From Alphaproteobacteria bacterium (lineage in GTDB: Bacteria; Pseudomonadota; Alphaproteobacteria; MPNO01; UBA830): 64,000 nucleotides of DNA. The notes under the pieces were generated by a model. That model had not been told where the DNA came from, did no database searches, and saw only the letters and a program-made list of their open reading frames with translations. Shown one piece after another: positions 3,805 through 47,864 of this stretch. The position numbers were made by a program, and so were the translations under genes. Positions within the stretch are counted from its first letter, which is position 1. The number at the start of each line of letters is the position of its first letter. The DNA lies in contig OZ251539.1 of NCBI GenBank assembly GCA_965243135.1, positions 4,032,001-4,096,000 of the forward strand, read 5' to 3'.

Positions 3805-3841
3805 AAAAAAGAAAGGGGGGCGACTTTCGCCGCCCCCCTTC
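3805..3841 (-). terminator. Rho-independent terminator of left porin
   Basis: Minus strand GAAGGGGGGCGGC-GAAA-GTCGCCCCCCTTTC followed by T-run, just after the stop codon. Confidence 0.8.
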
Positions 3842-3863: not shown

Positions 3864-4946
3864 CTAGAAGGCGACCTTGATGCCCGTGGTGTAGGCAGTG
3901 CCGTCCTGGGACTCGCTGCCCGCCTCGTATTCCGCCCACAGGGCGTCGAGCGACCACGTCACGCCCGCCCCGAGGCTGCGCGAATACGACAGCCGGCCCG
4001 CCGAGGTTTCCCGCTCCATCTTCTCGAGGTGGATGTAGCCCAAGGAGACGGCGTGCGGCCCCCAGGAGTAGCGTCCGCCGATGTCCCAGCGGTCGAGTTC
4101 GTCGCCGCCAGCTTTCGTGACTTCGTTATGCCGCACGTAACCGACGCCGACCTTGACGCCCGAGAAATCGACCCACAGGCCGCCGCCCCAGTTCTGCGGA
4201 TCGTCATCCATCGTACTCTGAGCATCCGCCGTGACGTAGCCGAAAGCTGCGCCGACCTTGGTGTCGCCGTGTTTCTGGTTATAGTTCACCGCGGCCGCGA
4301 CGATGTCTTTCGCCCCCATCGCCGTACTGTGCAGTTGTTTGCTGTCCTCGGCACCGGATCGCGAATAGGAGACGCCCATCTGGAAGCCGTTGAAGCGCGG
4401 CGTGTAGTAGGCCACGGTATCGCTGTCGCTGCTGATGTTCACGCGACCGCTCGCGGCACCGAGCGCATCGTCCGCCTTGGTATCTGTCGCTGCTCCAAGG
4501 TTGTTCGGAATCCAGTCGCCGACGTCGAATTCCAGCGTCTGGTTGCCGGTGCCGGTGGAAACGCTGCCGTGATAGCCGAACGTCATCTCGTAGCCGGCCT
4601 CGTCAAGGGCGCCGATCTGGATCTGGCCGAAGTCGCCCGAGACGAAGAACTTGGTCTCGTCGGTGGGGTCGGAGCTACCATCGATGTTGCCTTCGAGCTC
4701 GACCACCGTCGAAATGGTGATGCCGTTGTCCAGCGGCGCCTTGCCCTTGAAGTGGACTTCGACGTCCTGCTGCACGCCGATGCCGTCCTGGCCGTCGACA
4801 TCGTTGTCGCCGACGCCGACATTGGCTTCCCAGTAAGCGCTCATGGACAGCGACGGCTTCATCTTGTCCTGCGCGACGGCCGCGCCCGACAAGGCCAGTG
4901 CGCCGACGGCCGCCAGCGCAGTGGATGCGAGGAGATGTTTCTTCAT
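3864..4946 (-). CDS. Gram-negative porin, copy L
   Basis: Signal peptide MKKHLLASTALAAVGALALSGAAVA; LDNGITIS..VELEG, GDFGQIQIG, YYTPRFNGFQMGVSY; C-terminal Phe. Confidence 0.92.
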   Translation of the reverse strand: MKKHLLASTALAAVGALALSGAAVAQDKMKPSLSMSAYWEANVGVGDNDVDGQDGIGVQQDVEVHFKGKAPLDNGITISTVVELEGNIDGSSDPTDETKFFVSGDFGQIQIGALDEAGYEMTFGYHGSVSTGTGNQTLEFDVGDWIPNNLGAATDTKADDALGAASGRVNISSDSDTVAYYTPRFNGFQMGVSYSRSGAEDSKQLHSTAMGAKDIVAAAVNYNQKHGDTKVGAAFGYVTADAQSTMDDDPQNWGGGLWVDFSGVKVGVGYVRHNEVTKAGGDELDRWDIGGRYSWGPHAVSLGYIHLEKMERETSAGRLSYSRSLGAGVTWSLDALWAEYEAGSESQDGTAYTTGIKVAF

Positions 4947-4986
4947 GGATCCCTCCGAAACATGGTCAAACACAAAGAGGGAAACG
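4880..4986 (-). repeat. Left arm of 107-bp inverted repeat (porin 5' UTR + signal peptide)
   Basis: Reverse complement matches 7868-7974 with one mismatch by eye. Confidence 0.9.
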
Positions 4987-5114
4987 CCGGATCATTTCGC
5001 AGCACCGCCCTCAACCTTGATCGCAGCAGGCACCCTTCCGAAGCAGACGCTTGCCGCGTTCACAAGGATGCTTTTACGCCGAAACGGTCGCCGTCTCAAG
5101 AGCCAGCGCATACC

Positions 5115-5155
5115 GTTGCAAAAAAAGGACACAGACTGTGGCATTTTTGCAACAT
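5115..5155 (-). promoter_or_regulatory. Dyad-symmetric motif upstream of porin L (candidate regulator site/promoter element)
   Basis: GTTGCAAAAA..CACAG-A-CTGTG..TTTTTGCAAC, AT-rich, about 170-210 bp upstream of the porin start; absent upstream of porin R. Confidence 0.45.
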
Positions 5156-5327
5156 CCGGAATCCTGAGGAGCGGGCATCCATCCTGCCGCGCCGTACGGC
5201 GAAGCGAACATGGGCCGGCGGAGCGGCGATGCGTGCGCACCCGGAGGCGTCCGTCGTCTCCCGAGAGATCCAGGCGTTCCAGCGGCAGCGCCCTGCTTGA
5301 CGGCAGGCGTCAACCGAACGCGGCCGG

Positions 5328-6524
5328 TCACCATGGGCGTTCCGGCGCGTCTTTCGAAATCGCCGGGCGGGAAGACGCAGGAGAACCCGTCGGCTGCTTC
5401 CCTTCCATGGCGGCGGAGATGGCGGCGCCTACCCGCTCGGCCGCCGCTTCGACCTCGCGGTCGGCGACATGCGCGTACCGCAGCGTCGTCCGGACTTGCC
5501 TGTGGCCGAGAAGCCTTGCGACGACCGGCAGCGAAACGCCTCGCAACACCGCCTGACTGGCGAAGGTGTGGCGCAAATCGTGCAGCCGCGCATCTTCGAT
5601 TCCGGCCTGTCGCCTTACCCTGTACCAGAGCGGGAGATTGTCCGAGCAGGGCCGCGCGGGATTCGAAGGAGAGGGGAAAACGTACGGGCTTTCCGTTCGC
5701 GGCTGGCGTTCGAGTATCCGGCGAGCCGCGGCGTTCAGGAGAACCTTGCGCGGTCCCGTCTTGCTGTCCCCGAGATTGAGCATGTCTCCGTCGAAGTCCC
5801 GCCAGCGCAGCCCGACGATCTCTCCCTTGCGGCAACCGGTCAACAGCAGAAGGCGGATCATGTCCGCCTGGCGGCTCGTTCTCTCGTTCGCGTAACCGTC
5901 CAGAACCCGATGCAGGCGGCGGATTTCCTCTCGCGAAAGGAACCGGGTGAGCTTGCGGCGCGGGTTCGGTTTCACGCACCGGGCCGGGTTTGACTCTATG
6001 AAGGCGCAGGCGATCGCGTAGTTCAAAATCTGGCGCAGCGTCTTGAGCGCCTTGTTGGCTCCGTCCGGAGCGGTCAGGCTGTAGGCGTCGAACCACGCTT
6101 CGATCCCGATCCGGACGATCCGATGGAGCGGCAGGCTTCCGAAAACCGGCAGCAACTGGGTTTCGAGAATGCAATCGACGCCTTTTTTCGTCGACGGCTT
6201 GTACCGGTCATAGCAGGCGGTCTTCCAAAGCCCCGCGACGAACTCCCGGAACGGCGGAGACGAATTCGGGGGAGCGGGCACCTCGGTACCTGCGAGGACG
6301 AGGCATTCGCGGCGCGCGGAGCCGACGCTTTTCAACGCCGCCGGACCGAGCGAAAACTTCCTCGCCCGGTCGCCGGACCTGCAGCAGCACACGTAGCTCC
6401 GGCTTCCAGCGGGCCGGACCCTGACGCCGAATCCCGCCGCCCGCGCATCCCAGACCGTGTACTCCCTGCTTTCCGGTTTGAGCCGGGCGACGCCGGCGTC
6501 CGTCAAACGCATTCTCCTCGCCAT
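5328..6524 (-). CDS. Tyrosine recombinase/integrase B with N-terminal arm-binding (DUF4102-like) domain
   Basis: LTGCRKGEI, SKTG, LHDLRHTFAS, LLGH, RYAH: full R-K-H-R-H-Y set. Confidence 0.93.
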   Translation of the reverse strand: MARRMRLTDAGVARLKPESREYTVWDARAAGFGVRVRPAGSRSYVCCCRSGDRARKFSLGPAALKSVGSARRECLVLAGTEVPAPPNSSPPFREFVAGLWKTACYDRYKPSTKKGVDCILETQLLPVFGSLPLHRIVRIGIEAWFDAYSLTAPDGANKALKTLRQILNYAIACAFIESNPARCVKPNPRRKLTRFLSREEIRRLHRVLDGYANERTSRQADMIRLLLLTGCRKGEIVGLRWRDFDGDMLNLGDSKTGPRKVLLNAAARRILERQPRTESPYVFPSPSNPARPCSDNLPLWYRVRRQAGIEDARLHDLRHTFASQAVLRGVSLPVVARLLGHRQVRTTLRYAHVADREVEAAAERVGAAISAAMEGKQPTGSPASSRPAISKDAPERPW

Positions 6525-6527
6525 CTT

Positions 6528-7625
6528 TCAGCCTTCCAGAATCTCGCCGACGGCCTCTACGGCCTGGCGGACCGCCGCATCGGCCAAATGAGCGTATTTG
6601 AGGGTGCTCGCCGGATCGCGATGTCCGAGCAATCGTCCGATGGTGAGCACCGTCTCGCCTTGCGCGAGGGCCATGCTGGCGTACGTGTGGCGCAAGTCGT
6701 GCAGTCGGATGTCGCCCAGACCCGCTTCCTCTCGAATTTTCCGCCAGAAGCGTCCGAGCGACTTCTTATCCACGGTCGCTCCGCGCAAGTGGAAGACCTG
6801 CTTCCCCTCTTGATCCAGCCCCGCCAGCAGTTCGCGGGCGGCGGCGGATAGCCAGACGGTTCGCGGTCCTGTCTTTCCATCCGCAAGAAACAGCTTGCCG
6901 TCGCGGTAGTCGGTCCATTTCAGGCTCATGATCTCGCTCTTGCGGCACCCCGTCAGAAGCAACAGCCTGATCGCCGCCACATGGAGCGGCTTCGCTCCGT
7001 CGTGGCGAGCCAGCGCCGCAGCCAGACGGCCGATTTCGTCCGTCGACATGAAACGTTCCCGGCCTGCGCCGCCGTATCGCTTGATCCCCCTGCACGGATT
7101 GCTGTCCTCCGGCCTGTAGCCGTAAAGCTCTGCCTGCCGCATGATGACGGAGAGAATCGGGATGGAACGATCCGCCGCCGCCGGCGTCTCGCGCAGCGAG
7201 GCGAACCATTGCCTGACGTCCTCCTTCGCGATCTCGGCAATGCGTTTCCCCTTGAACCACGGCAGGATCTTGCTCCGATAGTTGCTGCAATTCACTGCAA
7301 GGGTGCCGGCTTTCCAGCGGCGGCCGTAACGCCGAAACGCTTCCTCTGCGACGGCCTCGAAAAGAGTTTCCCCGGCCGGGGGTTCGTGCCTGATCGCGGA
7401 CAAGGCCGCGGCTGCGCTCGATCGGGCCTCGTCGGCGCTGACGGTCTCGGCTCCGCCCAGGGATTTCCAGATGCGCCTGCCGTCGCGCTGGCTGTGCAGG
7501 AAGTAGCTCTTCTTTCCCGAAGGGCCGACCCGTACGCCGAAACCCCTCAGGTCGGCGTCCCGGACTTCGTAGACGGTTTTGCGCGGCTTGAGAGCGTCGA
7601 CGCGGCGCTGGGTAAGATGACGCAT
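6528..7625 (-). CDS. Tyrosine recombinase/integrase A with N-terminal arm-binding (DUF4102-like) domain
   Basis: LTGCRKSEI, GKTG, LHDLRHTYAS, LLGH, KYAH; stop lies 3 bp before the start of integrase B. Confidence 0.93.
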   Translation of the reverse strand: MRHLTQRRVDALKPRKTVYEVRDADLRGFGVRVGPSGKKSYFLHSQRDGRRIWKSLGGAETVSADEARSSAAAALSAIRHEPPAGETLFEAVAEEAFRRYGRRWKAGTLAVNCSNYRSKILPWFKGKRIAEIAKEDVRQWFASLRETPAAADRSIPILSVIMRQAELYGYRPEDSNPCRGIKRYGGAGRERFMSTDEIGRLAAALARHDGAKPLHVAAIRLLLLTGCRKSEIMSLKWTDYRDGKLFLADGKTGPRTVWLSAAARELLAGLDQEGKQVFHLRGATVDKKSLGRFWRKIREEAGLGDIRLHDLRHTYASMALAQGETVLTIGRLLGHRDPASTLKYAHLADAAVRQAVEAVGEILEG

Positions 7626-7834
7626 GCGCTTTTCCCTATGCAATCGGTTGCAGTCGGGGCAAGCGCCGCTTGGGGTCGCAATCGCACCAAAAAGCGCTGC
7701 ACGGCCTAAGCTCCTCGGCGCGGACTCCCGTCGGCCGGGTTATGACCGCTTCCCGGAGATCCGTTGCAGATGGGGCGAAAAAGCGCCCTGTTTCGAGCTT
7801 TCGGCTTATTCGCGCCGAAAAAAAGAAACCCGCA

Positions 7835-7847
7835 TTTCAACGAGTTA
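7835..7847 (+). promoter_or_regulatory. Possible IHF binding site next to the inverted-repeat arm
   Basis: TTTCAACGAGTTA, one mismatch to WATCAANNNNTTR, preceded by an A-tract. Confidence 0.35.
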
Positions 7848-7867
7848 GACCGAGGCAGCGTTTCGGA

Positions 7868-7974
7868 CGTTTCCCTCTTTGTGTTTGACCATGTTTCGGA
7901 GGGATCCATGAAGAAACATCTCCTTGCATCCACTGCGCTGGCGGCCGTCGGCGCACTGGCCTTGTCGGGCGCGG
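7868..7974 (+). repeat. Right arm of 107-bp inverted repeat (porin 5' UTR + signal peptide)
   Basis: CGTTTCCCTCTTTGTGTTTGACCATGTTTCGGAGGGATCCATGAAGAAACATCTCC...GGGCGCGG, inverse of 4880-4986. Confidence 0.9.
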
Positions 7975-8969
7975 ATGCCGCGCAGGACAAGAAGACGACG
8001 GAGCCGTCGCTTACCGTTAGCGGCAACTGGGAAGCCAACGTCGGCGTCGCCGACAACGATGTCGACGGCGAGGACGGCATCGGCGTGCAGCAGGACGTCG
8101 AAGTCCACTTCAACGGCGGGGTGGTTCTGGACAACGGCATCACCGTTTCGACGGTGGTCGAGCTCGAAGGCAACACCACAGGCGACACCATCGACGAGAC
8201 CAGGTTCGTCGTCTCGGGCGACTTCGGACAGATCCAGATCGGCAGCATCGACGAGGCCAGCTACGAGATGACGTTCGGCTATCACGGCTCCACTGGAAAC
8301 AGAAACACCGGCAACCAGACGCTGGAATTCGACGTCGGCGGGTGGGTTCCGAACAGCATCGACGGTCTCGGAGCCTCGGCCGGTCGCGTGAACCTCACCA
8401 ACGACGCCGATACCGTCGCCTACTACACGCCGCGCTTCAACGGCTTCCAGATGGGCGTCTCCTATTCGCGGTCGGCTGCTGCGGGGGACAGCGCACACTT
8501 GCACACTACGGCGGGTATGATGAAGGACATCGTCGCGGCCGCCATCAACTACAACCAGAGGCACGGCGACACCGGGGTCGGCGCGGCTTTCGGCTACGTC
8601 ACGGCGAATGAGCCGAATCCGGCGATGGACGATCCCCAGAACTGGGGCGGCGGCCTCTGGGTCGATTTCTCGGGCGTCAGTGTCGGCGTCGGTTACGTGC
8701 GGCATAACGAAGTCACGAGAGCTGGCGGCGACGAACTCGACCGCTGGGATATCGGCGGACGCTACTCCTGGGGGCCGAACGCCGTCTCCTTGGGCTACAT
8801 CCACCTTGAAAGGATGGAAGAGGAAACGGCGGCGGGCAAACTGTCGTATTCGCGCGGCCTCGGGGCGGGCGCGACATGGTCGCTCGACGCCCTGTGGGCG
8901 GAATACGAGGTGGGCAGCGAGTCCCAGGACGGCACCGCCTACACCACAGGCATCAGGTGGCGCTTCTAG
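7908..8969 (+). CDS. Gram-negative porin, copy R (paralogue of copy L)
   Basis: Same signal peptide and conserved blocks as copy L, divergent inter-block segments, ends in Phe. Confidence 0.92.
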   Translation: MKKHLLASTALAAVGALALSGADAAQDKKTTEPSLTVSGNWEANVGVADNDVDGEDGIGVQQDVEVHFNGGVVLDNGITVSTVVELEGNTTGDTIDETRFVVSGDFGQIQIGSIDEASYEMTFGYHGSTGNRNTGNQTLEFDVGGWVPNSIDGLGASAGRVNLTNDADTVAYYTPRFNGFQMGVSYSRSAAAGDSAHLHTTAGMMKDIVAAAINYNQRHGDTGVGAAFGYVTANEPNPAMDDPQNWGGGLWVDFSGVSVGVGYVRHNEVTRAGGDELDRWDIGGRYSWGPNAVSLGYIHLERMEEETAAGKLSYSRGLGAGATWSLDALWAEYEVGSESQDGTAYTTGIRWRF

Positions 8970-8982
8970 TCCGGACCGGACG

Positions 8983-9015
8983 GAAGGAAGCGGCGAAAGC
9001 CGCTTCCTTCATTTT
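8983..9015 (+). terminator. Rho-independent terminator of right porin
   Basis: GAAGGAAGCGGC-GAAA-GCCGCTTCCTTC-ATTTT. Confidence 0.75.
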
Positions 9016-9088
9016 GGCTGAGTCGCTTCCGCGGTGCTTTTCAATCAAGCAGAAGGCTTCTTCTTTTTATGAATCCTGCGGCAGTTTA

Positions 9089-12000
9089 ATGAGCGCCAGA
9101 GCCGGTACAGGCGTCGTCTCTGGCAGGAAAACGCTCGTACGCCTCTCGCCACGTCGCGAGTTCAAAACGCCGGATGCCGCCATCGCAACACGAAAAACCG
9201 CCCGAGCAAAGAGGTATGTCCTGATCCAACTTTGTCGCAAAAAGCTGATCGCGGATTCTTGCCCCCCCCCCCCCCGAAATCTGAAGCTCGTCGCGCTGGG
9301 CGGGGCCGCGGCTTTTCTGCTGGCTTTTCCGGCCATGTCCTTTGCGCAGCAGGACTGCGGCAGCGCCGTTCGAGGCAGCTACAATAGCGAAACCGGAGTT
9401 TTCTCCGCGGGAACGTCCGCTACGGACGTCGACTACAGGGTGGCTTGCACGGAGGACGACGGAGACTCCGTGATCACGCTGCCGACGGGTCTTTCGCTGC
9501 CGAACGCCGTTTCCGACTCGTACGTGGTGATCGAGGTCGCCGGGTCGGGAAGCGTTCGCAATTTTCAGCCCGGCGCCTGGAAATACGTCGTGAAGACTCC
9601 CGACGACTTCCGGACGGAAAACACGAACGACGCCCTCGGGCACGGCCTGTACTTCCGTAGCGGGAGCGGCGACGTGCGCGTCGAGCTGCGCGGCGCGGCG
9701 ACCACCCGCGGAGCGGGCGCGACCGGCATGCGGGTGCGGGTCGACGGCGGCGGCAAGGCGACGGCGGTCAACATGGGAACGATCGCCACCCATGGCGACA
9801 CGCACACCTCCAGCGCGGTCGGCACGTTCATCCTGCCGGCCTACGGCGTCTACGCGCAAGCGGAGCAGGGCGACGCCGAAGCGGTGAACCGCGGCGAGAT
9901 CTCGACGGGCGGCGATGGAGCGAGAGGCATCTTCGCGCGGGCCCGCGGGTCGGCGGTGGCGACCAATCACGGGAGGATCACGGTTTCCGGTCCTCCGCAT
10001 GTCTCCGGCTCGGAATACCGGTCTCCGCACGGCATTTTCGCATGGGGCGGGACGGCGGAGGCCGCCAATTTCGGGACGGTCGAAACGCGGGGCGACCGGG
10101 GACGCGGCGTCTACGCGCGCGGGAGCGCCGCGACGGCGACCAATCGCGGCACGATCGTCACCCGCGGCAATCGCGCGGGCGTGGAAGGAAATTTCCTCTC
10201 GGCAATGGGAGTGGCCGCCCAATCGGGCGGCGACGCGACGGCCGTGAATGCCGAGGGCGCCGCGGTGGACACCTACGGCACGAATGCCGACGCCCTGTTC
10301 GTCCGGTCGGGTACCGGAGACGCGAACGCCGTGAACGCGGGCGCGCTTCGCACGCACAATACGGTATCGGATCCCGCCAACAGGCTCGCGCTCGCCGCCG
10401 AAGGCATCTACGCGCGTTCGGACAGCGGCAACGTCACGGTCGTGAACGAGGCGACGGGATCCGTGCGGACGGCGGGCCCGAGGACATGGGGCATCCATGC
10501 GAGAACGAACGGCGACGGCGCGGACGCTTCCGCAACGGTGACGGTCACGAACCGGGGCAGCGTGGAGACCCAAGGGTCGAACGCGGACGGCGTCGTGGCG
10601 GCAGCGTATCACGGCGGCAGCGAAGCCAACCCCAACGCCGTCACGACGACCAGTGCCGGACTCGTCAGGACGCAGGGCGACATGGCCAGCGGCATCATCG
10701 CCGCGGTGGACGTCCGCGACCGCGGAACCTCCTTCGGCTCCGCGCGGGCGGAGAACGCCGGCACGATCTCGACGTCCGGCGGACCCGGCGACGGAACGGA
10801 CCCGACGCAGACCGCGTCCGGAGTGGTCGCCGCCTTTTTCAGCACGTCGGACGACGCGATCTCCGACGCCGGAGACGCGACCGCGATCAACAGCGGAACG
10901 GTGACCGTCGCCGGCGCGGGCGCGGCCGGACTCGTCGCCCGGACCTACGGGTCCGGCGCGGCGACGGTGGAAATGAACGGCGGCGCCGTCGTCGCCTCTT
11001 CCGCGGACGACCCCGCGACGACGGCCGACGAGGGCGGCATCGGCATATGGGCCGCCACGGGCGCGTCCGGCAGGGCTTCGGTGACGGTCGGAAACGCGGC
11101 TGTCGTCCGGGCGCCGGTTGCGGCCCGGCTCGACGGCGGCTCCACGAGGCTCGACCTTTCTTCCGGCTGGCTCGTCGGCGACGTGCGCTTCGGGAGCGGC
11201 GACAACACCCTGAACGTCAGGCGATCAGGCGTCATCGTCGGCGACGTGACCTTCGGCGGCGACAGCGGGAACACAGTGATCCTCGACGCCTCCTCGACGG
11301 CAGGGGTCGTCGGCATTCAGGGTTCGATCACCGGGCTTGAAACCATGCTCAAGCGCGGCCCCGGCGTCGCACGCGTGCGCGACGTGACTTTCTCCGGCTC
11401 CCGGCTTGCGGTCGAGGACGGCATGTTGTCGGTTCGCGGCCATCTCGACCTGGGCGGCGACGGCGCCGTCACGATCGAAAACGCCGGCAGGCTGCAGGTG
11501 GAGGTCGGCGACCTTGCCGGCAATCCCCAAGACCACGGACGGATCACGGCTGGAAACGGGGTCCACTTCGAGGAGGGCGCCGAACGGACTGTCCGGGTGG
11601 CGCATGCTCCGGATCGCTCCGCCGCGCAGAGGACCGCTTCCGAACAAGTCCTCCAGACCGCCGGGATCGCAATCCTCGTCGACGGAACCCCTGCCGTCGA
11701 TGGACGGAATGAACAGTCGATTGGGGATCTGACCTTGACGACAGAAACGCCCGAAGGGACGGTGAACACGGTCGGCAACGTCTCTGTAGACGGTGTAGCC
11801 CAGATCAACCCGGGCGCGGAGTTGCCGACCGCCCGGAAGGAGGCCTCTCCACCCGGTGAACAGAAAGCGGACGCGCCTGAGGCTGCCGTGCCCGCCGTGA
11901 AGCGCAAAGACCGCAGGGATCGCCGTTTCCTGATCGGGGGAGGAGGGCTGTTCGCCCTGCTGATGTTCGCTTTCGACCCGTTCCACATGGTGGAGGCGGG

Positions 12001-12835
12001 CGGTTCGAGCGCCGCGGTCCAGCCGGCGGACGGCCGCGAGGGCGTCGAGGCGCGCGCGTTCACCGCGGACGCACGGGTGGCGGGGGGAACGATGCGCGGC
12101 GTGACGCTGGGCGTCGCTTCGCGGCTCGGCGGCGATCTCCATCTCGGAGTGTCGGCGACGCCCGCCCTTGCGGCGACGGCCGATTCCGGGGAGGCGCTGG
12201 AAGGGGGCCGGTTCGGGCTTCAGGGCCGCTGGCGGTCGGGCATCCTGGATATGGGGGCCAGCCTGTCTCACGGAACCTACGACGCCCGGTCGAAGTCCGC
12301 CAACCTCGAAGGGCTGGACAACCCGGAAGGCGTGTACGGACTGCGCCACGACCATGCGCAGATGCGCCTGGGCGCCCGCGTCGCCGCCGCCGGAATCGAC
12401 GTCGCCCCCTCGCTGTCGCTGTTCGGCGGCCGCCTGGAGCAGACGGCGCACACGGCGCGGTCCGCGGCTCTGCGCGCCGAAGTGCCGGCGCTGACCCGGC
12501 GCTACGGCGGCTGGAAGGCGCGGCTCGACCTCGGGCCGCAGGACTGGCTGCAGGCCGGCCCTGTCCGGTGGCGCCCGCGGCTGGGCCTCGCCGCGGCGCG
12601 GATCTCCACCGACGCTCCGGACGGGCTCCGGGTGCGCCAGTCCGACGCCGCCGGCGCGTTGAGCTTCACGACGCCGGCGCAGGCGGAAGCGCTGCCGCGG
12701 AGGATGCACGCGCTCGCCCTGTCGGCGTCCGTCCGCGGCGAAACCTGGAAACTGGACGGCGGCTACGTGGCGGCGATGGCGGCGGACGACAAGCCGGTCC
12801 ATGCCGTTGCGGCGCGGCTGAGCATCGACTTCTGA
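9089..12835 (+). CDS. Autotransporter-like outer-membrane adhesin (start codon uncertain)
   Basis: Signal-peptide-like LVALGGAAAFLLAFPAMSFA-QQ; Gly/Ala/Thr/Asn-rich beta-helix repeats (N.G.I.T.G..A.GI.A); C-terminal beta-domain ending RLSIDF. Confidence 0.8.
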   Translation: MSARAGTGVVSGRKTLVRLSPRREFKTPDAAIATRKTARAKRYVLIQLCRKKLIADSCPPPPRNLKLVALGGAAAFLLAFPAMSFAQQDCGSAVRGSYNSETGVFSAGTSATDVDYRVACTEDDGDSVITLPTGLSLPNAVSDSYVVIEVAGSGSVRNFQPGAWKYVVKTPDDFRTENTNDALGHGLYFRSGSGDVRVELRGAATTRGAGATGMRVRVDGGGKATAVNMGTIATHGDTHTSSAVGTFILPAYGVYAQAEQGDAEAVNRGEISTGGDGARGIFARARGSAVATNHGRITVSGPPHVSGSEYRSPHGIFAWGGTAEAANFGTVETRGDRGRGVYARGSAATATNRGTIVTRGNRAGVEGNFLSAMGVAAQSGGDATAVNAEGAAVDTYGTNADALFVRSGTGDANAVNAGALRTHNTVSDPANRLALAAEGIYARSDSGNVTVVNEATGSVRTAGPRTWGIHARTNGDGADASATVTVTNRGSVETQGSNADGVVAAAYHGGSEANPNAVTTTSAGLVRTQGDMASGIIAAVDVRDRGTSFGSARAENAGTISTSGGPGDGTDPTQTASGVVAAFFSTSDDAISDAGDATAINSGTVTVAGAGAAGLVARTYGSGAATVEMNGGAVVASSADDPATTADEGGIGIWAATGASGRASVTVGNAAVVRAPVAARLDGGSTRLDLSSGWLVGDVRFGSGDNTLNVRRSGVIVGDVTFGGDSGNTVILDASSTAGVVGIQGSITGLETMLKRGPGVARVRDVTFSGSRLAVEDGMLSVRGHLDLGGDGAVTIENAGRLQVEVGDLAGNPQDHGRITAGNGVHFEEGAERTVRVAHAPDRSAAQRTASEQVLQTAGIAILVDGTPAVDGRNEQSIGDLTLTTETPEGTVNTVGNVSVDGVAQINPGAELPTARKEASPPGEQKADAPEAAVPAVKRKDRRDRRFLIGGGGLFALLMFAFDPFHMVEAGGSSAAVQPADGREGVEARAFTADARVAGGTMRGVTLGVASRLGGDLHLGVSATPALAATADSGEALEGGRFGLQGRWRSGILDMGASLSHGTYDARSKSANLEGLDNPEGVYGLRHDHAQMRLGARVAAAGIDVAPSLSLFGGRLEQTAHTARSAALRAEVPALTRRYGGWKARLDLGPQDWLQAGPVRWRPRLGLAAARISTDAPDGLRVRQSDAAGALSFTTPAQAEALPRRMHALALSASVRGETWKLDGGYVAAMAADDKPVHAVAARLSIDF
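9262..9275 (+). repeat. C14 homopolymer in the 5' coding region of the autotransporter
   Basis: 14 consecutive C just upstream of the signal-peptide hydrophobic core. Confidence 0.9.
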
Positions 12836-13212: not shown

Positions 13213-13509
13213 CTATTCCGCCGCCTCGGCCGGCGGCTCCTTCCGGTGCTCGGCGAAAGTCTCGAGCAGGTCGAACTTGCCCTCGACGCGTGCCACTCGC
13301 TCGCTCAGCTTCCGGAACTGCTCGCTCATCTCCCGGAACTGCTCGCTCATCTCCCGGAACTGCTCGTTCATCTCCCGGAACCGTTCGTTCATGTGCAGGG
13401 CAAGAGCGTCGATCCGGCGGTCGAGCCGACGGCCTTGCTGAAGAACCAGCCCGACAATCGCAATGCCGACGCCAAGCATGGTGATGATTTCGGGGGAAAA
13501 CTCTTCCAT
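13213..13509 (-). CDS. Small membrane-anchored coiled-coil protein, copy 1 (98 aa)
   Basis: GGAGG RBS; MEEFSPEIITMLGVGIAIVGLVL hydrophobic helix, MNE(R/Q)FRE heptads, conserved RVARVEGKFDLLE tail. Confidence 0.8.
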   Translation of the reverse strand: MEEFSPEIITMLGVGIAIVGLVLQQGRRLDRRIDALALHMNERFREMNEQFREMSEQFREMSEQFRKLSERVARVEGKFDLLETFAEHRKEPPAEAAE

Positions 13510-15309: not shown

Positions 15310-17266
15310 GTAGAGTCGAGGACTGGCGCGTTAGTTTTAGGGTCCGGTGGATGTTCCGTCGCTTTCGCTCCGGGCCTCAGTCCGGCTCCCTTGACCACGT
15401 TTCCAGTCCCCGCTCGTCAAACCGGACGTGCGGATTTCCCGCGCTTCGGTCGAGATCATGCCTTCGCCCACGGGAAGCTCTTCGTTCGCGGTGTAAGACG
15501 CGTAAGACCTATTTCATTCCATAGGTATTCTTTTGGAAAGCGCGCATACTTTCCTTTACGCACCTTGTGCTTGCGACAGAGCCATTGGCGCAGCCGACGG
15601 GTTGCGTGTCGATCAACGGCGGCGTAGGCGGGGCTGACCTGTCCTGATACGAAATAGTTTCCCCATCCAGTTATTATCCTGTTGAGGCGTTTTACCATCT
15701 CGTCCGGTTCAAGTTGTCCGTTTCTTCTCGCCGTCATTTCACTGTTGGCTTATGCTTTGGACGCTCGCCGAGCTGGGACGCGTTCCAATGTAGGATCGTC
15801 CCGTGTCCCGACGATAGTTGCGTCCGATTCGGTACCCAAGGTATTCTAGTGGTTTCTCAGGCACCCGTAAACATTGGGTCTTCTCCGCGTTTATCGGCAG
15901 TTTCAGCCTTTCCATGAGTGCTTCGACTGCCGCCAGCATCTTGTTGGCCGGCGCTTTGCCGAGCACCACACTGTCCAGTTGACGATCTTCGCGCAGAAGC
16001 TTTGAGCGTAGCCCAATACCTTCCAGCCCAGTATGAACCGGCGCATGTAGATGTTGCTGAGTAGCGGGGAGATCGGCGCTCCTTGCGGAGTGCCTTTCCT
16101 TTCCCTGCGTGCCCGGTTCGTGCGGCGTTTGCCGCCTTTGCCGTCGTCCTCTTCCACTGCCATTTCCAGCCATGCTTTGACCCAGCCCAGCATTCGTCCA
16201 TCGCTTACGCGACGGGCGACGGACTTCATCAGGTCCGCATGCGGGATTTGACCGAAGTAGTCGGACAGGTCCGCGTCCACCACCTCATGGTGGCCTTGTC
16301 TCAGTAACTGGTGCACCCGTTTGACCGCATCGAGTGCGCTTCTTTCCGGTCTGTAGGCATATTGCTCCGGTTGCAGGTCGGCTTCGAAGATCGGCGACAA
16401 TATGAGCATCGCCGCCGTTTGTGCCACCCTGTCCCGTATGCAGGGAATGCCCAGGGGCCGGAATTTTCCGCGCTGTTTCTTCGGGATTAAAACCTGCCGT
16501 ACCGCGGCCGGCCGGTAGGTTCCTTCTTTTAGGTCCCGCGCCAGTTCCTCAAGCCATTGGCCCACTCCTTGCGCTTCAATATCCGCTATCGTCGTTCCGT
16601 CCGTTCCGGCAGTTCCTCCGTTTCGACGGACGTCCTGCCAGGCTGTGAACAGTACTTCGTAGCTCCATACCTTGTCGCATAGCGAGTAGAACCGGAAGCT
16701 CGGGGATTCCTTCGCTTTCGCATGTAACGCTATCTGGAGTCTCCGAACTTTCTCCGAGGCTGCTAGGCTTTTGCCAGTCCTCATGTCCTTTCCTCCTTCC
16801 AACGCTTCTCTCGACCCAAGGCCCCTTTCCTCCACCGGCATTACCCGGCTTCTCCGGTACTACGGGCCTCTCCGCCACCCTGCCGGCCCGGCCTGCCCCT
16901 CGCGGGGTTCCGGTTGACTCTTGCGCGTCACCGACAGGGCTTCCCGTGTTGCTGCTTCCTTCATCTTCCATGCGTGCCGACATCATTACCCCGGCGGAAA
17001 CGGTCGGTGCGCTTGTCGTTCTCTTCCCGACCGTCGGCGGCTTTCCCCTAGTTTCCGGAGGGTCAGCTTCCGCATTGCATGTTTCGAGGCCTGGTTCACT
17101 CGCGTTTCGGCCCGCATGTTCGCTGAGCGGCCTTCGCCGCCCTTTTTCCAGAGTGCTTCAGTCTACATCGTTACCTCCGTAAACCGCCCTGGCTGCTACC
17201 AACCGGAACGACAGTTGTTGGGTGGGATTCGCACCCACCAGAAGAAAGCGCCTTTCCACGGCGCAC
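15310..17266 (-). mobile_element. Group II intron (degenerate)
   Basis: 5' end GTGCGCC at 17266; domain V-like GCGGGAAATCCGCACGTCCGGTTT and 3' end ...CTCGACTCTAC at 15310; removal restores the repeat-unit sequence GCAGCTGAAA|GAAAACCCGGAAAG with no target duplication. Confidence 0.9.
15456..16784 (-). pseudogene. ltrA: Group II intron reverse transcriptase/maturase, frameshifted, YADD motif lost
   Basis: RPLGIPCIRDRVAQ, DADLSDYFGQIPH, GTPQGAPISPLLSNIY; sequence after KIVN lacks YADD (about 15968-15980); C-terminal parts continue in other frames (YLGYRIGR, LNRIITGWGNYF). Confidence 0.9.
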
Positions 17267-18051: not shown

Positions 18052-19322
18052 GGATTCTCGCCAAAATAAAGTGGTTGTTTGGTTGTGCGGGTATGTTATA
18101 TTCCATGTCATGGAACACGCTGTGACGCAAGTGGTGCAGGCCAAGTTCGTTGCACTCAAGCCTTTGCTCGACGAGCGAACGCGCCGCCGCTGGGCTGCGG
18201 TGGAGGCGCGCGCGATTGGACGCGGCGGCATCGCGAGGGTCGCGGAGGCGACAGGGATGTCGAGAACGACCATTCAGGCGGGGATCAAGGAACTCGATCG
18301 ATTGCCGGAGGACGAGCCGGTGCGCAGTCCGGGCGGAGGCAGGAAGCCGCTTACCGCGCATGATCCAGACCTTTTGGCCGCCCTTGAGAGGCAGGTCAAT
18401 CCGGTCACGCGCGGCGACCCGTCCGGTCCATTGCGCTGGACATGCAGCAGTGCCGCGCATCTGGCGCAAGAGCTTCGGACAGCCGGCCACCAGGTCAGCG
18501 AGCGCACGGTGAACCGGATGCTCCATGATGCTGGCTACAGTCTGCAAGCCAACCGCAAAACGCTCGAGGGCAATCAGCACCCGGACCGGGATGCGCAATT
18601 CAGGTATATCAACCGGCGTGTGAAGGCTTTTCAAAAATTGGGTCAGCCGGTCGTGTCGGTTGACGCGAAAAAGAAGGAACTTGTTGGAAAATATAAGAAT
18701 AATGGCAAGGAGTGGAAGCGCAAGGGACAGCCCGAAGCCGTCAACGTTCATGATTTTCCCGACAAGGTGCTCGGGAAAGCACTTCCTTACGGCGTTTACG
18801 ATTTGACGAACGACACGGGGTGGGTGAGCGTCGGCGTCGACCACGACACGGCGACATTCGCTGTCGAAACGTTGCGCCGGTGGTGGTGCAAGATGGGATG
18901 CCATGCCTATCCCGGAGCGCGGCGTTTGCTGATCACAGCCGATGGCGGCGGACGGCAGCCGCAACCGCTTGTGGAAATGGGAGTTGCAGAAGCTTGCCGA
19001 CGATATCGGTCTCCAAATCTCCGTTTGTCACTTTCCGCCCGGGACGAGCAAGTGGAACAAAATCGAACATCGCATGTTCTGTCACGCACAATTGGCGCGG
19101 ACGTCCGTTGACAAGCCACGAGGTGGTCGTGAACCTCATTGGCCATACGACAACGAAAAGCGGCTTGACCCTCCGGTCCGAGTTGGACGAAAACAGCTAT
19201 CCAACAGGGCAACCGGTGACGGACCGGCAGATGGCCAGCCTGTCTCTCAAACGAGACAACTTCCATGGAGAGTGGAATTATAGATTCTCGCCAAAATAAA
19301 CAGTTTATTTTGGCGAGCTTCC
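18052..19322 (+). mobile_element. ISAzo13-family insertion sequence
   Basis: Terminal IRs GGATTCTCGCCAAAATAAA / TTTATTTTGGCGAGCTTCC, flanked by a TTA duplication (18049-18051, 19323-19325). Confidence 0.85.
18110..19299 (+). pseudogene. ISAzo13-family DDE transposase with two frameshifts
   Basis: LDERTRRRWAA, TRGDP, YSLQANRKTLEG..HPDRDAQF, SVDAKKKELVG, PPGTSKWNKIEHRMF, FHGEWNY; frame breaks near 18950 and 19085. Confidence 0.88.
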
Positions 19323-45444: not shown

Positions 45445-47864
45445 GAAAGCCGGAGTTCCCGAAGCTTCGCGAAGGGCGAATCCGAAGAAGGCTGCCGGTC
45501 GCGCCGCCCGCCCGGCCGGCGAACGGCGGCCGGGCGGTCCGCCCGCTTCCACGCCATTCCGTTTTCCGTGTCGCGGGAAGCGTAGCCGAGCGCTTCGAAC
45601 ACGGGCCGCGCCGCGTCCATGGACAGTCCGAGGAGATTGAGTTGCGCCGCGCCGATATCGAGCTTGCCCTCGCGCGACTGCCGCTGCAGATCGACCGCGA
45701 CCCGATCGAGAACGTCGATCCGAACCGCCCGTTCGCCGATTACCCTGTAGCCGCAGGCTTCGAGGAAGCCGGCGGGCGGGTCCGCCGGCACGGTGACGAG
45801 GCCGGCGGCGGGCGGCTCCCGAGGCGTCAGCGCCGCATCGACGGACCAGAGCAGCGCGCGCCACGCGACCGCCGCGGGCTTGACCAGCGACGGGACGAAA
45901 ACGGTCTCCGCGCCGAACCGGACGCCGCAGGAACGCAGCGCGGCGCGATCCTCCCGGGAAAGTTCCCGGACTTCGCGCGCGACGGATCGCCTCGGGACCG
46001 ACCCCAGGCCCTCGACGATGCGGTAGGCGATCCCGCGCGCGAGGCCGCGGAGTTCGGCGGCGCGGAGCGCCTCGAGAGGCGCCAGCGCTTCGGAAACGCG
46101 CGCGCCTGTCCAATCGGACAGGCGGCGGCGCACCGTCTCCTGCAAGGCCGCGCTCAGGTATTCCCCCGGCAGGAGCCTTATCGTCGGCGACAGAATGTCC
46201 GCCCCTTTCGTCAGCCGCGCGACGGCCGCGCCCGACCAGGAAAGGACGCCGTTCGCGGAGACCGCGAAGTCCGAATCCGGAGCCGCCGCGAGAGCGGCCG
46301 CGCGGGCCTCGATCTCGCGGCGCAGCGCGCCCGTCGGCGCGCCCGTCCCCGAGTCGTCGGCGACGAACCGGAATCCTTCGACGCGTCCGACGCGCTCGCC
46401 GCCCACGGCGACCTCGCCGTCTCCGCCCACCGTCGCTTCTCGCCGCGCGGCGGCGCGGCGGTCGACGAAGCGGCGGGTCAGACTGTCGTGGAGCGCGTCG
46501 GACAGTTTGTCCTCGAGGTCCCGCGTCCTGGCCTGCCAGGTCTCGGCGTCCGCAATCCATTCGGAACGGTACGAGATGTAGGTCCATGTCCGGACGTGGG
46601 CGATCCGGGCCATCAGCGTGTCGATGTCGCCGTCCGTTCTGTCGAGCGGAGCGATCTGCGCCGCCACCCAGTCGGCGGGAAGGCGGCCGCCGTCGCCGAG
46701 GTGGCGGAATATGCGGCCGAGCAAGACTGCATGAACGTCAGGCGTCGTCTTTCGGAAATCCGGAATCCGGCACACGTCCCACAGCAGCCGCACCGTATCG
46801 GGCGAAGAGGCGCGTCGGGCGAGCTCGGGATCGCGCGCCAGATGCGCCAGCGCGATCTGGTCGTCCGCCTCGCGGCCGCGCTCCAGTCCGGGCGCGGACG
46901 GCGGACGTTCCAGCGACCTGCGGAGCGCCGCCACGGAGCCGAAATCGAGATCGGCGTTGCGCCAGGAAACGCCGGCGATCGGATCGAACCGGTGCTCCTC
47001 CACCGCCGCCACGAGTTCGTCCTCGAAGGAGCCGATCTCCGCGATCGGTCCGAACGTGCCGTCGGAGAGGTGCCGGCCGGCCCGGCCGGCGATTTGCGCG
47101 ATCTCCGCCATCGCGAGGCGGCGGTAGGCGCGGCCGTCGAACTTGCGGATCCCGGCGAAGGCGACGTGATCGATCCTCATGTTGAGGCCCATGCCGATCG
47201 CGTCGGTCGCGACCAGAAAATCCACGTCGCCGTTCTGGTACAATTCCACCTGCGCGTTGCGCGTCCGGGGGCTCAGCGCGCCCAGCACGACCGCGGCGCC
47301 GCCGCGCCGGCGCATCAGTTCGGCGATGGCGTAAATCTCGTTGACGGAGAACGCGACGACGGCGCTGCGCCGCGGCAGCCGCGTGATCTTGCGCGGGCCG
47401 GCGTAGCTCAGCCTGGAAAGCCGCGGACGGCTCACGTGTTCGACGCCGGGCGCCAGCGACCGGATCAGCGGCCCCATGCTCGCGGCGCCGAGGAACATGG
47501 TTTCGCGGCGTCCGCGGGCGCGCAGCAGGCGATCCGTGAATACGTGGCCGCGCTCGGGGTCGGCGCACATCTGGATCTCGTCGACCGCGAGGAAATCCAC
47601 CTCCCGGCCGACGGGCATGGCCTCGACGGTGCAAAGGAAATAGTTCGCGCGGGGCGGAACGATCTTCTCTTCGCCGGTGACGAGCGCGGTCCGCGCCCTT
47701 CCCCGGAGAGCGACGACCCGGTCGTAGTTCTCGCGCGCAAGCAGGCGCAGCGGAAAACCGATCATGCCGGAATCGTAATCGAGCATCCGGTCAATCGCGT
47801 GATGCGTCTTGCCGGTGTTCGTGGGGCCGAGAACAGCCGTCAGGCGGGGCAGCCGGGCGGACAT
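45441..47864 (-). CDS. SUV3/MgpS-like SF2 helicase
   Basis: LGPTNTGKT, VDEIQ, VATDAIGMGLN, QIAGRAGR. Confidence 0.93.
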   Translation of the reverse strand: MSARLPRLTAVLGPTNTGKTHHAIDRMLDYDSGMIGFPLRLLARENYDRVVALRGRARTALVTGEEKIVPPRANYFLCTVEAMPVGREVDFLAVDEIQMCADPERGHVFTDRLLRARGRRETMFLGAASMGPLIRSLAPGVEHVSRPRLSRLSYAGPRKITRLPRRSAVVAFSVNEIYAIAELMRRRGGAAVVLGALSPRTRNAQVELYQNGDVDFLVATDAIGMGLNMRIDHVAFAGIRKFDGRAYRRLAMAEIAQIAGRAGRHLSDGTFGPIAEIGSFEDELVAAVEEHRFDPIAGVSWRNADLDFGSVAALRRSLERPPSAPGLERGREADDQIALAHLARDPELARRASSPDTVRLLWDVCRIPDFRKTTPDVHAVLLGRIFRHLGDGGRLPADWVAAQIAPLDRTDGDIDTLMARIAHVRTWTYISYRSEWIADAETWQARTRDLEDKLSDALHDSLTRRFVDRRAAARREATVGGDGEVAVGGERVGRVEGFRFVADDSGTGAPTGALRREIEARAAALAAAPDSDFAVSANGVLSWSGAAVARLTKGADILSPTIRLLPGEYLSAALQETVRRRLSDWTGARVSEALAPLEALRAAELRGLARGIAYRIVEGLGSVPRRSVAREVRELSREDRAALRSCGVRFGAETVFVPSLVKPAAVAWRALLWSVDAALTPREPPAAGLVTVPADPPAGFLEACGYRVIGERAVRIDVLDRVAVDLQRQSREGKLDIGAAQLNLLGLSMDAARPVFEALGYASRDTENGMAWKRADRPAAVRRPGGRRDRQPSSDSPFAKLRELRLS

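Follow-up and report, generated by a model that had tools for sequence, protein, structure and literature searches.

The stretch of DNA analysed here (hereafter the window) comprises 64,000 nucleotides (nt), positions 4032001–4096000 of the complete 6.1-Mb genome of an alphaproteobacterium (genome G000), and the subject of this report is a locus in it that we consider a candidate invertible porin switch. Two porin genes of opposite orientation, porin L and porin R, face away from each other across a pair of tyrosine recombinase (integrase) genes, intA and intB. The order of the locus is porin L, core, P, intB, intA, LE, core, porin R, where P is the upstream region of porin L, LE is the degenerate left end of what appears to be a mobile module, and the cores are the short proposed crossover sequences at the two porin leaders. 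The features, in window coordinates, are as follows.

3812–3841, minus strand: terminator-like hairpin of porin L, a 13-pair stem followed by a T run
3864–4946, minus strand: porin L, 360 amino acids, Porin_4 family, joined to P in the assembled orientation
4880–4986, no strand: left repeat arm, inner block, 107 nt with one mismatch against 7868–7974
4987–5327, minus strand: P, the putative porin upstream or regulatory region, with an AT-rich island, a short motif, and a candidate promoter
5328–6524, minus strand: intB, tyrosine recombinase of 398 amino acids (Phage_integrase match in Pfam)
6528–7625, minus strand: intA, tyrosine recombinase of 365 amino acids (Phage_integrase match in Pfam) with an Arm-DNA-bind_3 N-terminus
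7817–7871, minus strand: LE, degenerate module left end, placed by a weak profile match and by spacing
7868–7974, no strand: right repeat arm, inner block, from sequence comparison with the left arm
7908–8969, plus strand: porin R, 353 amino acids, Porin_4 family, joined to LE in the assembled orientation
8983–9010, plus strand: terminator-like hairpin at the 3′ end of porin R
4987–7867, no strand: proposed invertible segment (P, intB, intA, LE) of 2881 nt, bounded by the sharp inner edges of the repeat

A preliminary description of this DNA, made from its letters alone, had claimed a 107-bp inverted repeat with one mismatch, and this was borne out: positions 4880–4986 agree with the reverse complement of 7868–7974 at 106 of 107 nt, the single mismatch being at 4929. 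With the porin starts at 4946 and 7908, the block spans 40 nt of the 5′ untranslated region, the ribosome-binding site, and 22 codons of the signal peptide, as had been described. Comparison of the arms also upheld the claim that their similarity stops at once inward of this block, and each porin does have a terminator-like hairpin of its own (3841–3812 on the minus strand, 8983–9010 on the plus strand). The repeat is real as a sequence but is not a discrete element, since it is the innermost block of inverted whole genes that align over approximately 1152 columns, from position −40 to the terminator (about 1.15 kb), with 84% identity in nucleotides (gaps counted as mismatches) and 80% in protein. 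We also considered and rejected the block as a statistically special site, because 106 of the 108 columns of this 5′ part of the alignment are identical and the best other 108-column window reaches 105; a window with 107 identical columns arose in none of 20,000 column shuffles, which shows only that conservation is uneven along the porin gene. The distinguishing feature of the 107-nt block is its sharp inner edge and not its level of identity. A weak match of 35 nt (86%) to the signal-peptide part of the repeat lies at window positions 46217–46251 and is probably the leader of another secreted protein.

Both porins match Porin_4 of Pfam with high significance (E = 6e-37 and 1e-35; 128.5 and 124.5 bits against a cut-off of 27), begin with a signal peptide, and end in a C-terminal F, and no other protein of the genome scores above the Porin_4 cut-off; neither the integrases nor the porins reached the cut-off of any NCBIfam family. 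The structure of porin L predicted with AlphaFold from a 9-sequence alignment (mean pLDDT 65, pTM 0.63), has 16 strands and its best fold matches are Omp32, PorB, and OmpF-type porins, so that the two proteins are predicted to be general diffusion porins of the 16-strand Porin_4 type. With the outer loops and periplasmic turns of the model assigned by the textbook alternation, which we take to apply here, porins L and R differ at 44 of 106 predicted outer-loop positions, at 33 of 200 strand positions, and at none of 21 periplasmic-turn positions (loops versus strands, Fisher p = 3e-6), and all insertions and deletions between them fall in loops or at the mature N-terminus. The two porins would, on this model, show different outer faces, and a flip of the segment between them would change the exposed surface of a general porin.

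The two genes inside the segment had been described as catalytically complete integrases, and in our alignments the R-K-H-R-H-Y positions are indeed conserved: both proteins match Phage_integrase of Pfam and keep the catalytic R, K, H-x-x-R, H, and Y. The start of intB lies 3 nt after the stop of intA on the same strand. IntA retains 115 of 120 family-conserved positions and IntB 80 of 86. Four further genomes of the genus (G001–G004) were compared with G000, the five being kin and not independent samples, and the IntA proteins of G000 and G004 were found to have long branches (0.49 and 0.42; the median is 0.086) and to share R-to-S and Y-to-N/H departures from residues that are otherwise invariant in the family. 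The genome carries four intA–intB tandems with 58–68% protein identity, two of which are split across reading frames; the pair at the porin locus is at most 68% identical in protein to the other three, and near-identical copies of the kind seen elsewhere in the family do not accompany it here. Directly downstream of one of the paralogous pairs is a gene for a Type ISP restriction-modification enzyme of 1591 amino acids (L004:11559–16331, minus strand). At another locus, an inverted repeat of 53 nt and 89% identity (L006:5108–5160 and 13217–13268) brackets 8 kb that hold a decayed integrase pair together with IS66/DDE transposase fragments.

Scanning species-representative genomes with the IntA alignment yielded 132 relatives, of which 80 were kept, and in 74 of these 80 loci intB directly follows intA. 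When the loci were compared by megablast, many copies within and between genomes shared 90–97% identity over a stretch whose start, about 140 nt before intA, is sharp and whose end, at the 3′ end of intB, is gradual, with a few copies sharing a further 1.4–6.8 kb beyond intB. The sharp beginning, LE, follows unrelated flanking sequence and has the consensus ACAC(C/G/A), N7, CGCACCT, N3, GGTGC, TAAC, and a T-rich tract. This transition is seen in 60 of 61 aligned upstream regions, the odd row having been extracted on the wrong strand, and of 101 loci searched with a profile of it, 88 gave exactly one match, located upstream of intA, 60 of these 88 having served to build the profile; its usual distance from intA is about 110–140 nt. 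The shared unit is thus LE–intA–intB, approximately 2.4 kb in length, with varying cargo to its right (for example L022:7857–10245 and L041:7859–10207; loci L019–L119), and it occurs in multiple copies within single genomes of uncultured Alphaproteobacteria. Because it has near-identical copies and a sharply defined left end, the intA–intB pair is, as judged from these comparisons, the integration module of a mobile family. Targeting of tRNA genes was considered and dropped, as a tRNA gene adjoins intA in just 2 of 55 loci. The preliminary description had set a multi-copy mobile pair with its own ends against the idea of a switch; the pair does belong to such a family, with four copies in this genome and a defined left end, but this would explain where the switch came from instead of refuting it.

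What ties the module to the porins is the position of its left end. At the locus in question the LE profile matches 7849–7817 on the intA strand with 7.0 bits, a score that is weak on its own (E = 0.69 in 215 kb and 0.0026 in the 2.2 kb of candidate regions). The match lies about 220 nt upstream of intA, and the spacing of the profile places the equivalent of the core at 7867–7871, which is the inner edge of the right arm. The same coincidence is plainer in G004, where three porin copies share homology that starts about 46 nt upstream of the ATG and where, in the copy beside intA, the edge of that homology is ACACG followed by a well-conserved LE (profile E = 1e-9). The LE region of G004 is tandemly duplicated (2 × 109 nt with 85% matches, L017:9290–9506), so that two LE copies stand beside the porin; TRF found no tandem duplication in the LE region of the window. 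That the edge of the repeat coincides with a recombinase recognition site is clear in G004, and is indicated here by spacing together with the weak match.

The other side of the segment has a different character. P contains an AT-rich island (GC content 0.505 at 5060–5150, against 0.65 for the window) and a motif, CTGTG-N3-T7-GC, at 5118–5134. This pattern occurs once in the 6.1 Mb of G000, once each in G001 and G002, twice in G003, and not at all in G004, and it lies 165–190 nt upstream of a porin ATG in G000, G001, G002, and for one of the two matches in G003, where it precedes the single porin of that genome; the reversed pattern, used as a control, gave 0, 0, 2, 0, and 1 matches. As the pattern was defined after four sequences had been viewed, these counts are suggestive and do not amount to a blind test. 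A candidate promoter was read by eye in P, with TTGAGA at 5099–5094 and TAAAAG at 5076–5071 separated by 17 nt. Taken together, these features are suggestive of 4987–5327 being the native porin regulatory region with a candidate promoter. The two regions upstream of the porins, which had been called unrelated in the preliminary description, do differ, but they would represent a native promoter region and a transposon end rather than two promoters.

Multiple porin copies linked to such integrases were found in 4 of the 5 genomes of the genus. One porin copy adjoins LE or an intA fragment in each of these four, and three of them have a further copy attached to P. Of the three porins of G001, one is joined to P, a second to LE (E = 1e-5) with an intA fragment, and the third has other upstream sequence; an intact integrase pair lies 3 kb from there. 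In G002 one porin adjoins P, another adjoins a region with an intA fragment, and a fused intA/intB gene is nearby. In alignment, that single gene (L134:6763–8634) covers 5′ sequence of the G001 intA and 3′ sequence of the G001 intB, and it appears to be a fusion that arose by deletion between two paralogous integrase genes. In both G001 and G002 the homology among porin copies begins 13 nt before the ATG, at the LE junction, and the order and orientation of the blocks differ between the two genomes. In G004 three porin copies surround the intA–intB pair and the P motif is absent, and in G003 there is a single porin and no pair (no match to a 9-kb query). The porin paralogues are 80–99.7% alike within a genome and 37–45% between genomes, and we conclude from this that exchange between copies continues. 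The integrases of G000 and G004 are 58% identical in protein.

Across the whole family, 8 of 106 loci, this one included, have porin genes close to the pair. At L084, an apparently accidental case, LE abuts an unrelated porin at its 3′ end. Five others are porin arrays (L050:6898–17095, L051:6880–17095, L086:1658–11700, L077:1–6300, and L089:145–1272), and L050, L051, L077, and L086 fall in one clade of six rows, starred in the IntA tree, in which L089 was not included. In L050, L051, and L086 one copy each has a start codon and a signal peptide, whereas no copy with a signal peptide was present within the sequence examined at L077 and L089. The remaining copies are silent cassettes without a signal peptide or a start codon; each starts at a conserved junction with stop codons upstream of it, and all nine complete ones are open for 320–383 codons. 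Such open frames are unexpected for DNA that is never expressed, and imply, as far as sequence can, that the cassettes are used periodically. Within the junction is the sequence GGTGT, or ACACC when the opposite strand is read, and the cassette adjacent to intA directly abuts LE; in L050 and L051 the distant silent cassettes, too, are preceded by LE-like sequence (E = 5e-4 to 1e-2). The order at L086 is silent cassette, LE, intA, intB, approximately 320 nt, ribosome-binding site, signal peptide, junction, and porin, which is the layout of the locus in the window, and the 320 nt hold a candidate promoter, TTGACG-17-TACCTA. The arrangement porin / LE–intA–intB–P / porin thus recurs in G004 and at L086. 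Cassettes of L050 and L051 differ by 24–55% in protein, with integrases that are 93% identical in DNA; a comparison of the two loci for permuted slots was abandoned, as the cassettes are too diverged to be paired (at most 76% amino acid identity).

A tree in which all six porin-linked IntA rows form a single clade was rejected (p-AU 0.0008), and the link between module and porin therefore arose at least twice. The IntA proteins of G000 and G004 as sisters were not rejected and gave a better likelihood (lnL +9, p-AU 0.64). These results bear on another account of the locus, namely that a mobile pair landed by chance between divergent porins that were already there, with no mechanistic link. In the family at large 98 of 106 pair loci have no porin nearby, and the juxtaposition at L084 looks accidental. 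Against chance, porin linkage is found in 4 of the 5 genomes of the genus and, separately, in another integrase clade, and the repeat boundary coincides with the LE core. Moreover, a simple insertion leaves the displaced half of the promoter at the other end of the module, and no inverted copy of P was found. We regard chance adjacency as very improbable indeed.

A second account dispenses with the integrases as well. The inverted porin genes, 1.15 kb long, might invert and convert each other through RecA, the integrases being bystanders. Stretches of 57, 53, 49, and 43 nt are identical between the arms and long enough to serve as substrates, and the porin paralogues do show concerted evolution. 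A junction of 4746 with 8113 in one low-coverage contig, described below, would also fit a crossover inside the coding sequence, unless it is a k-mer chimera. RecA-driven exchange leaves unexplained, on the other hand, why paralogue homology ends at the LE core in G004, in G001, and here, and why the silent cassettes of the second clade start at the LE junction. We consider it improbable, if less so than chance.

The reading that we put forward is that of an active switch driven by the integrases, in which a domesticated pair flips the segment carrying P and so swaps the porin that is expressed. IntA and IntB would recombine two inverted short cores, each with the identical porin leader next to it; their inverted placement would leave the module able to flip but not to excise. 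As assembled, porin L has P beside it and would be the expressed copy, and porin R has LE; a flip would put porin R under the control of P. The core of the earlier proposal, that inversion of the segment swaps the pairing of porins and upstream regions, is thus supported by comparative anatomy, from which we infer it. We likewise infer from sequence that the integrases act on these sites at present and that P is the sole effective promoter. Phage, predator, or host recognition would be candidates for the selective agent. Our judgement is that this reading has roughly an even chance of being correct.

Several observations weigh against it. Inversion was not observed: contigs assembled at k = 31 from 4 runs stop 30 nt into each arm, so that orientation cannot be read from them, one such contig covering 4957–7897. 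Metagenome runs contained a fraction of 0.07–0.28 of the sequence words sampled. A scan of metagenomes with IntA returned 21 loci, the best 62% identical, and no contig of the same species. (One contig of 2.4× coverage, from a related organism, joins 4746 to 8113 on opposite strands through 43 shared nt; it may represent a hybrid porin or a chimera of k-mers or assembly, and was not used.) Most pairs in the family have neither a nearby porin nor a flanking inverted repeat. At the window locus LE is degenerate, its TAAC and T run being recognisable and its GCACC/GGTGC palindrome lost, as that palindrome also is undetectable in L086, L077, and L089. The P side (4987–5327) showed no LE-like or other recognisable site in a profile search, and an LE-like sequence suspected there by eye was dropped for want of a profile match; in the module family, too, similarity between copies is lost at or inside the 3′ end of intB, where no motif marking a right end was found. 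BLAST found no similarity between P and the upstream regions of G001–G004, which are linked to it by the short motif alone, and a strict sigma-70 scan gave 0 sites on either side. Both porins keep a ribosome-binding site, start codon, and signal peptide, and porin R might be expressed from the LE side. The assignment of the loops in which the porins differ rests on a model of mean pLDDT 65 and on textbook porin topology. Lastly, the two porins of G002 are 99.7% identical, so that switching there would be without effect, and the LE-linked integrase is a fragment in both G001 and G002.

Some of these same points are what one would expect of a fossil rearrangement, in which the module once recombined through its LE core with the porin leader, left porin R behind as an inverted partial duplicate, and no longer flips; porin L would then be expressed from P, and porin R would be silent or independently expressed. 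The family is mobile and multi-copy, LE is degenerate here, the LE-linked integrase has decayed in G001 and G002 and the pair of G002 has been fused into one gene, and two of the four pairs of G000 are split across frames. A fossil fits less well with the state of the locus itself, where both integrase reading frames are intact and keep nearly all of their family-conserved and catalytic positions, or with a linkage that has outlived the divergence of G000 and G004. The continuing exchange between paralogues and the silent cassettes of the second clade, which stay open, are likewise hard to reconcile with it. We think a fossil unlikely, though by no means negligible.

The active switch, if it exists, may be one instance of something more general. 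We suggest tentatively, with a little less than even confidence, that uncultured Alphaproteobacteria have at least twice independently made an undescribed two-integrase transposon module into a porin switch that uses the module's own LE as its crossover site. With the porin promoter aboard, the module would flip or shuffle between full-length genes in this genus and between silent cassettes without signal peptides in the clade of L050 and L086, and the only general porin of the cell would thereby vary in a programmed way.

Several neighbouring genes of the window deserve mention. An open reading frame downstream of porin R (8876–12835) is large and repetitive and has no Pfam hit; its internal repeats of 50 nt suggest a repeat-rich surface protein or an autotransporter-like protein, and a part of it (window 9209–11000) has a second copy, 95–96% identical, about 3 Mb away (G000:C1:1027927–1030445). 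A reverse transcriptase frame (RVT_1, 15906–16841, minus strand) and a transposase (DDE_Tnp_ISAZ013, 18071–19108, plus strand) lie 7–10 kb to the right of the porin locus, and the neighbourhood is therefore rich in mobile genes. Just to the left, at 1268–2782 on the plus strand, is a frame with Schlafen/AlbA_2 and HATPase_c_4 domains, a pair often found in genes of defence islands.

Most known cases in which surface-protein genes undergo programmed inversion come from pathogens and mycoplasmas. In the present case an environmental alphaproteobacterium would switch its sole general porin, by means of an integrase pair captured from a mobile element. If the proposal is true, it describes a simple route to domestication, whereby a module whose borders have become inverted copies of its target is trapped and turns into a switch. 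It would also offer a way to test the pressure that phage and hosts exert on porins in bacteria that are hard to culture, and make of the LE core a defined DNA site at which the cooperation of two tyrosine recombinases could be studied. A literature search, which covered sources other than subscription journals and supplements, found no description of such a porin-switch system. What would set the locus apart is the use of paired arm-type integrases that descend from an apparently undescribed module and take that module's own end as crossover site, and the placing of the promoter and both recombinase genes inside the segment that flips.

Among mobile elements, the module resembles the multi-recombinase transposons in having at least two translationally coupled tyrosine recombinase genes at one end, a defined terminus, variable cargo, and a target specificity that is low or moderate. 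In PMC10214605 and PMC3414803, Tn554 is described as carrying TnpA, TnpB, and TnpC, the SEs IntA, Tfp, IntB, and Srap, the GInts GinA–D, and the RITs three recombinases. Membership was rejected in each case. RITs have three adjacent recombinases and terminal inverted repeats (PMC3414803, PMC10214605), and there are only two genes here; BIMs pair one recombinase with a conserved non-recombinase protein (PMC3414803), and here both genes are recombinases; SEs and GInts have four core genes, including a Tfp/GinC protein that is recombinase-like but has no catalytic motif, and Srap/GinD (PMC10214605), and only intA and intB are conserved here. When copies were compared, the 2.4 kb that they share held no further conserved gene, and hence no TnpC-like third gene that would place the unit in the Tn554 family, a verdict that is based on gene content. 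The two-integrase family thus appears undescribed, being set apart from BIM, RIT, SE/GInt, and Tn554 by gene content. It differs from the multi-recombinase transposons in having two integrases of similar size with N-terminal arm domains, in its occurrence in Alphaproteobacteria, and, at this locus, in being flanked by inverted and not direct copies of its target.

Among switches, two side-by-side paralogous recombinases, FimB and FimE, invert a promoter segment in the fim system of Escherichia coli, and Rci shuffles 3′ gene cassettes in the R64 shufflon. The fimB and fimE genes lie outside a 314-bp switch with 9-bp repeats, whereas the segment here, of 2.9 kb, carries the recombinase genes within it, and its repeat extends through entire genes. 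The sapA inversion of Campylobacter fetus depends on RecA, uses about 600 bp of 5′ identity, and has no dedicated recombinase; the proposed switch is like it in having a single promoter on a segment between opposed homologues with a conserved 5′ region, and unlike it in that the boundary lies at a recombinase site. In the gammaproteobacterium Dichelobacter nodosus, Omp1 is reportedly varied by multiple site-specific inversions among several outer-membrane gene copies, much as we propose for the copies here, but with another recombinase and with no mobile-element end as the site, and we know of no module of promoter plus recombinase between its genes. The work on the Omp1 inversions (Moses et al. 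1995) and the vsp system of Mycoplasma bovis are both among the references of PMC5903667.

Together with Omp1 of D. nodosus, the closest functional parallels are found in the mycoplasmas, in which surface lipoproteins vary by inversion (vsa/HvsR of Mycoplasma pulmonis, vpma/Xer1 of M. agalactiae, and vsp of M. bovis). These systems have a locus-encoded tyrosine recombinase, one expression site, and silent genes that lack a promoter or a 5′ end, and crossover takes place at a short conserved sequence, situated in the 5′ leader or where the signal peptide is encoded, so that inversion brings another gene to the promoter. Arrays of the L050 and L086 type closely match this scheme. The systems proposed here depart from it in that two paired, P4-like, arm-domain recombinases from a mobile module would do the work and that the site would be the module's own LE, and in that the targets are 16-strand porins of a Gram-negative alphaproteobacterium, of which both genes in the window keep their ribosome-binding site and signal peptide.

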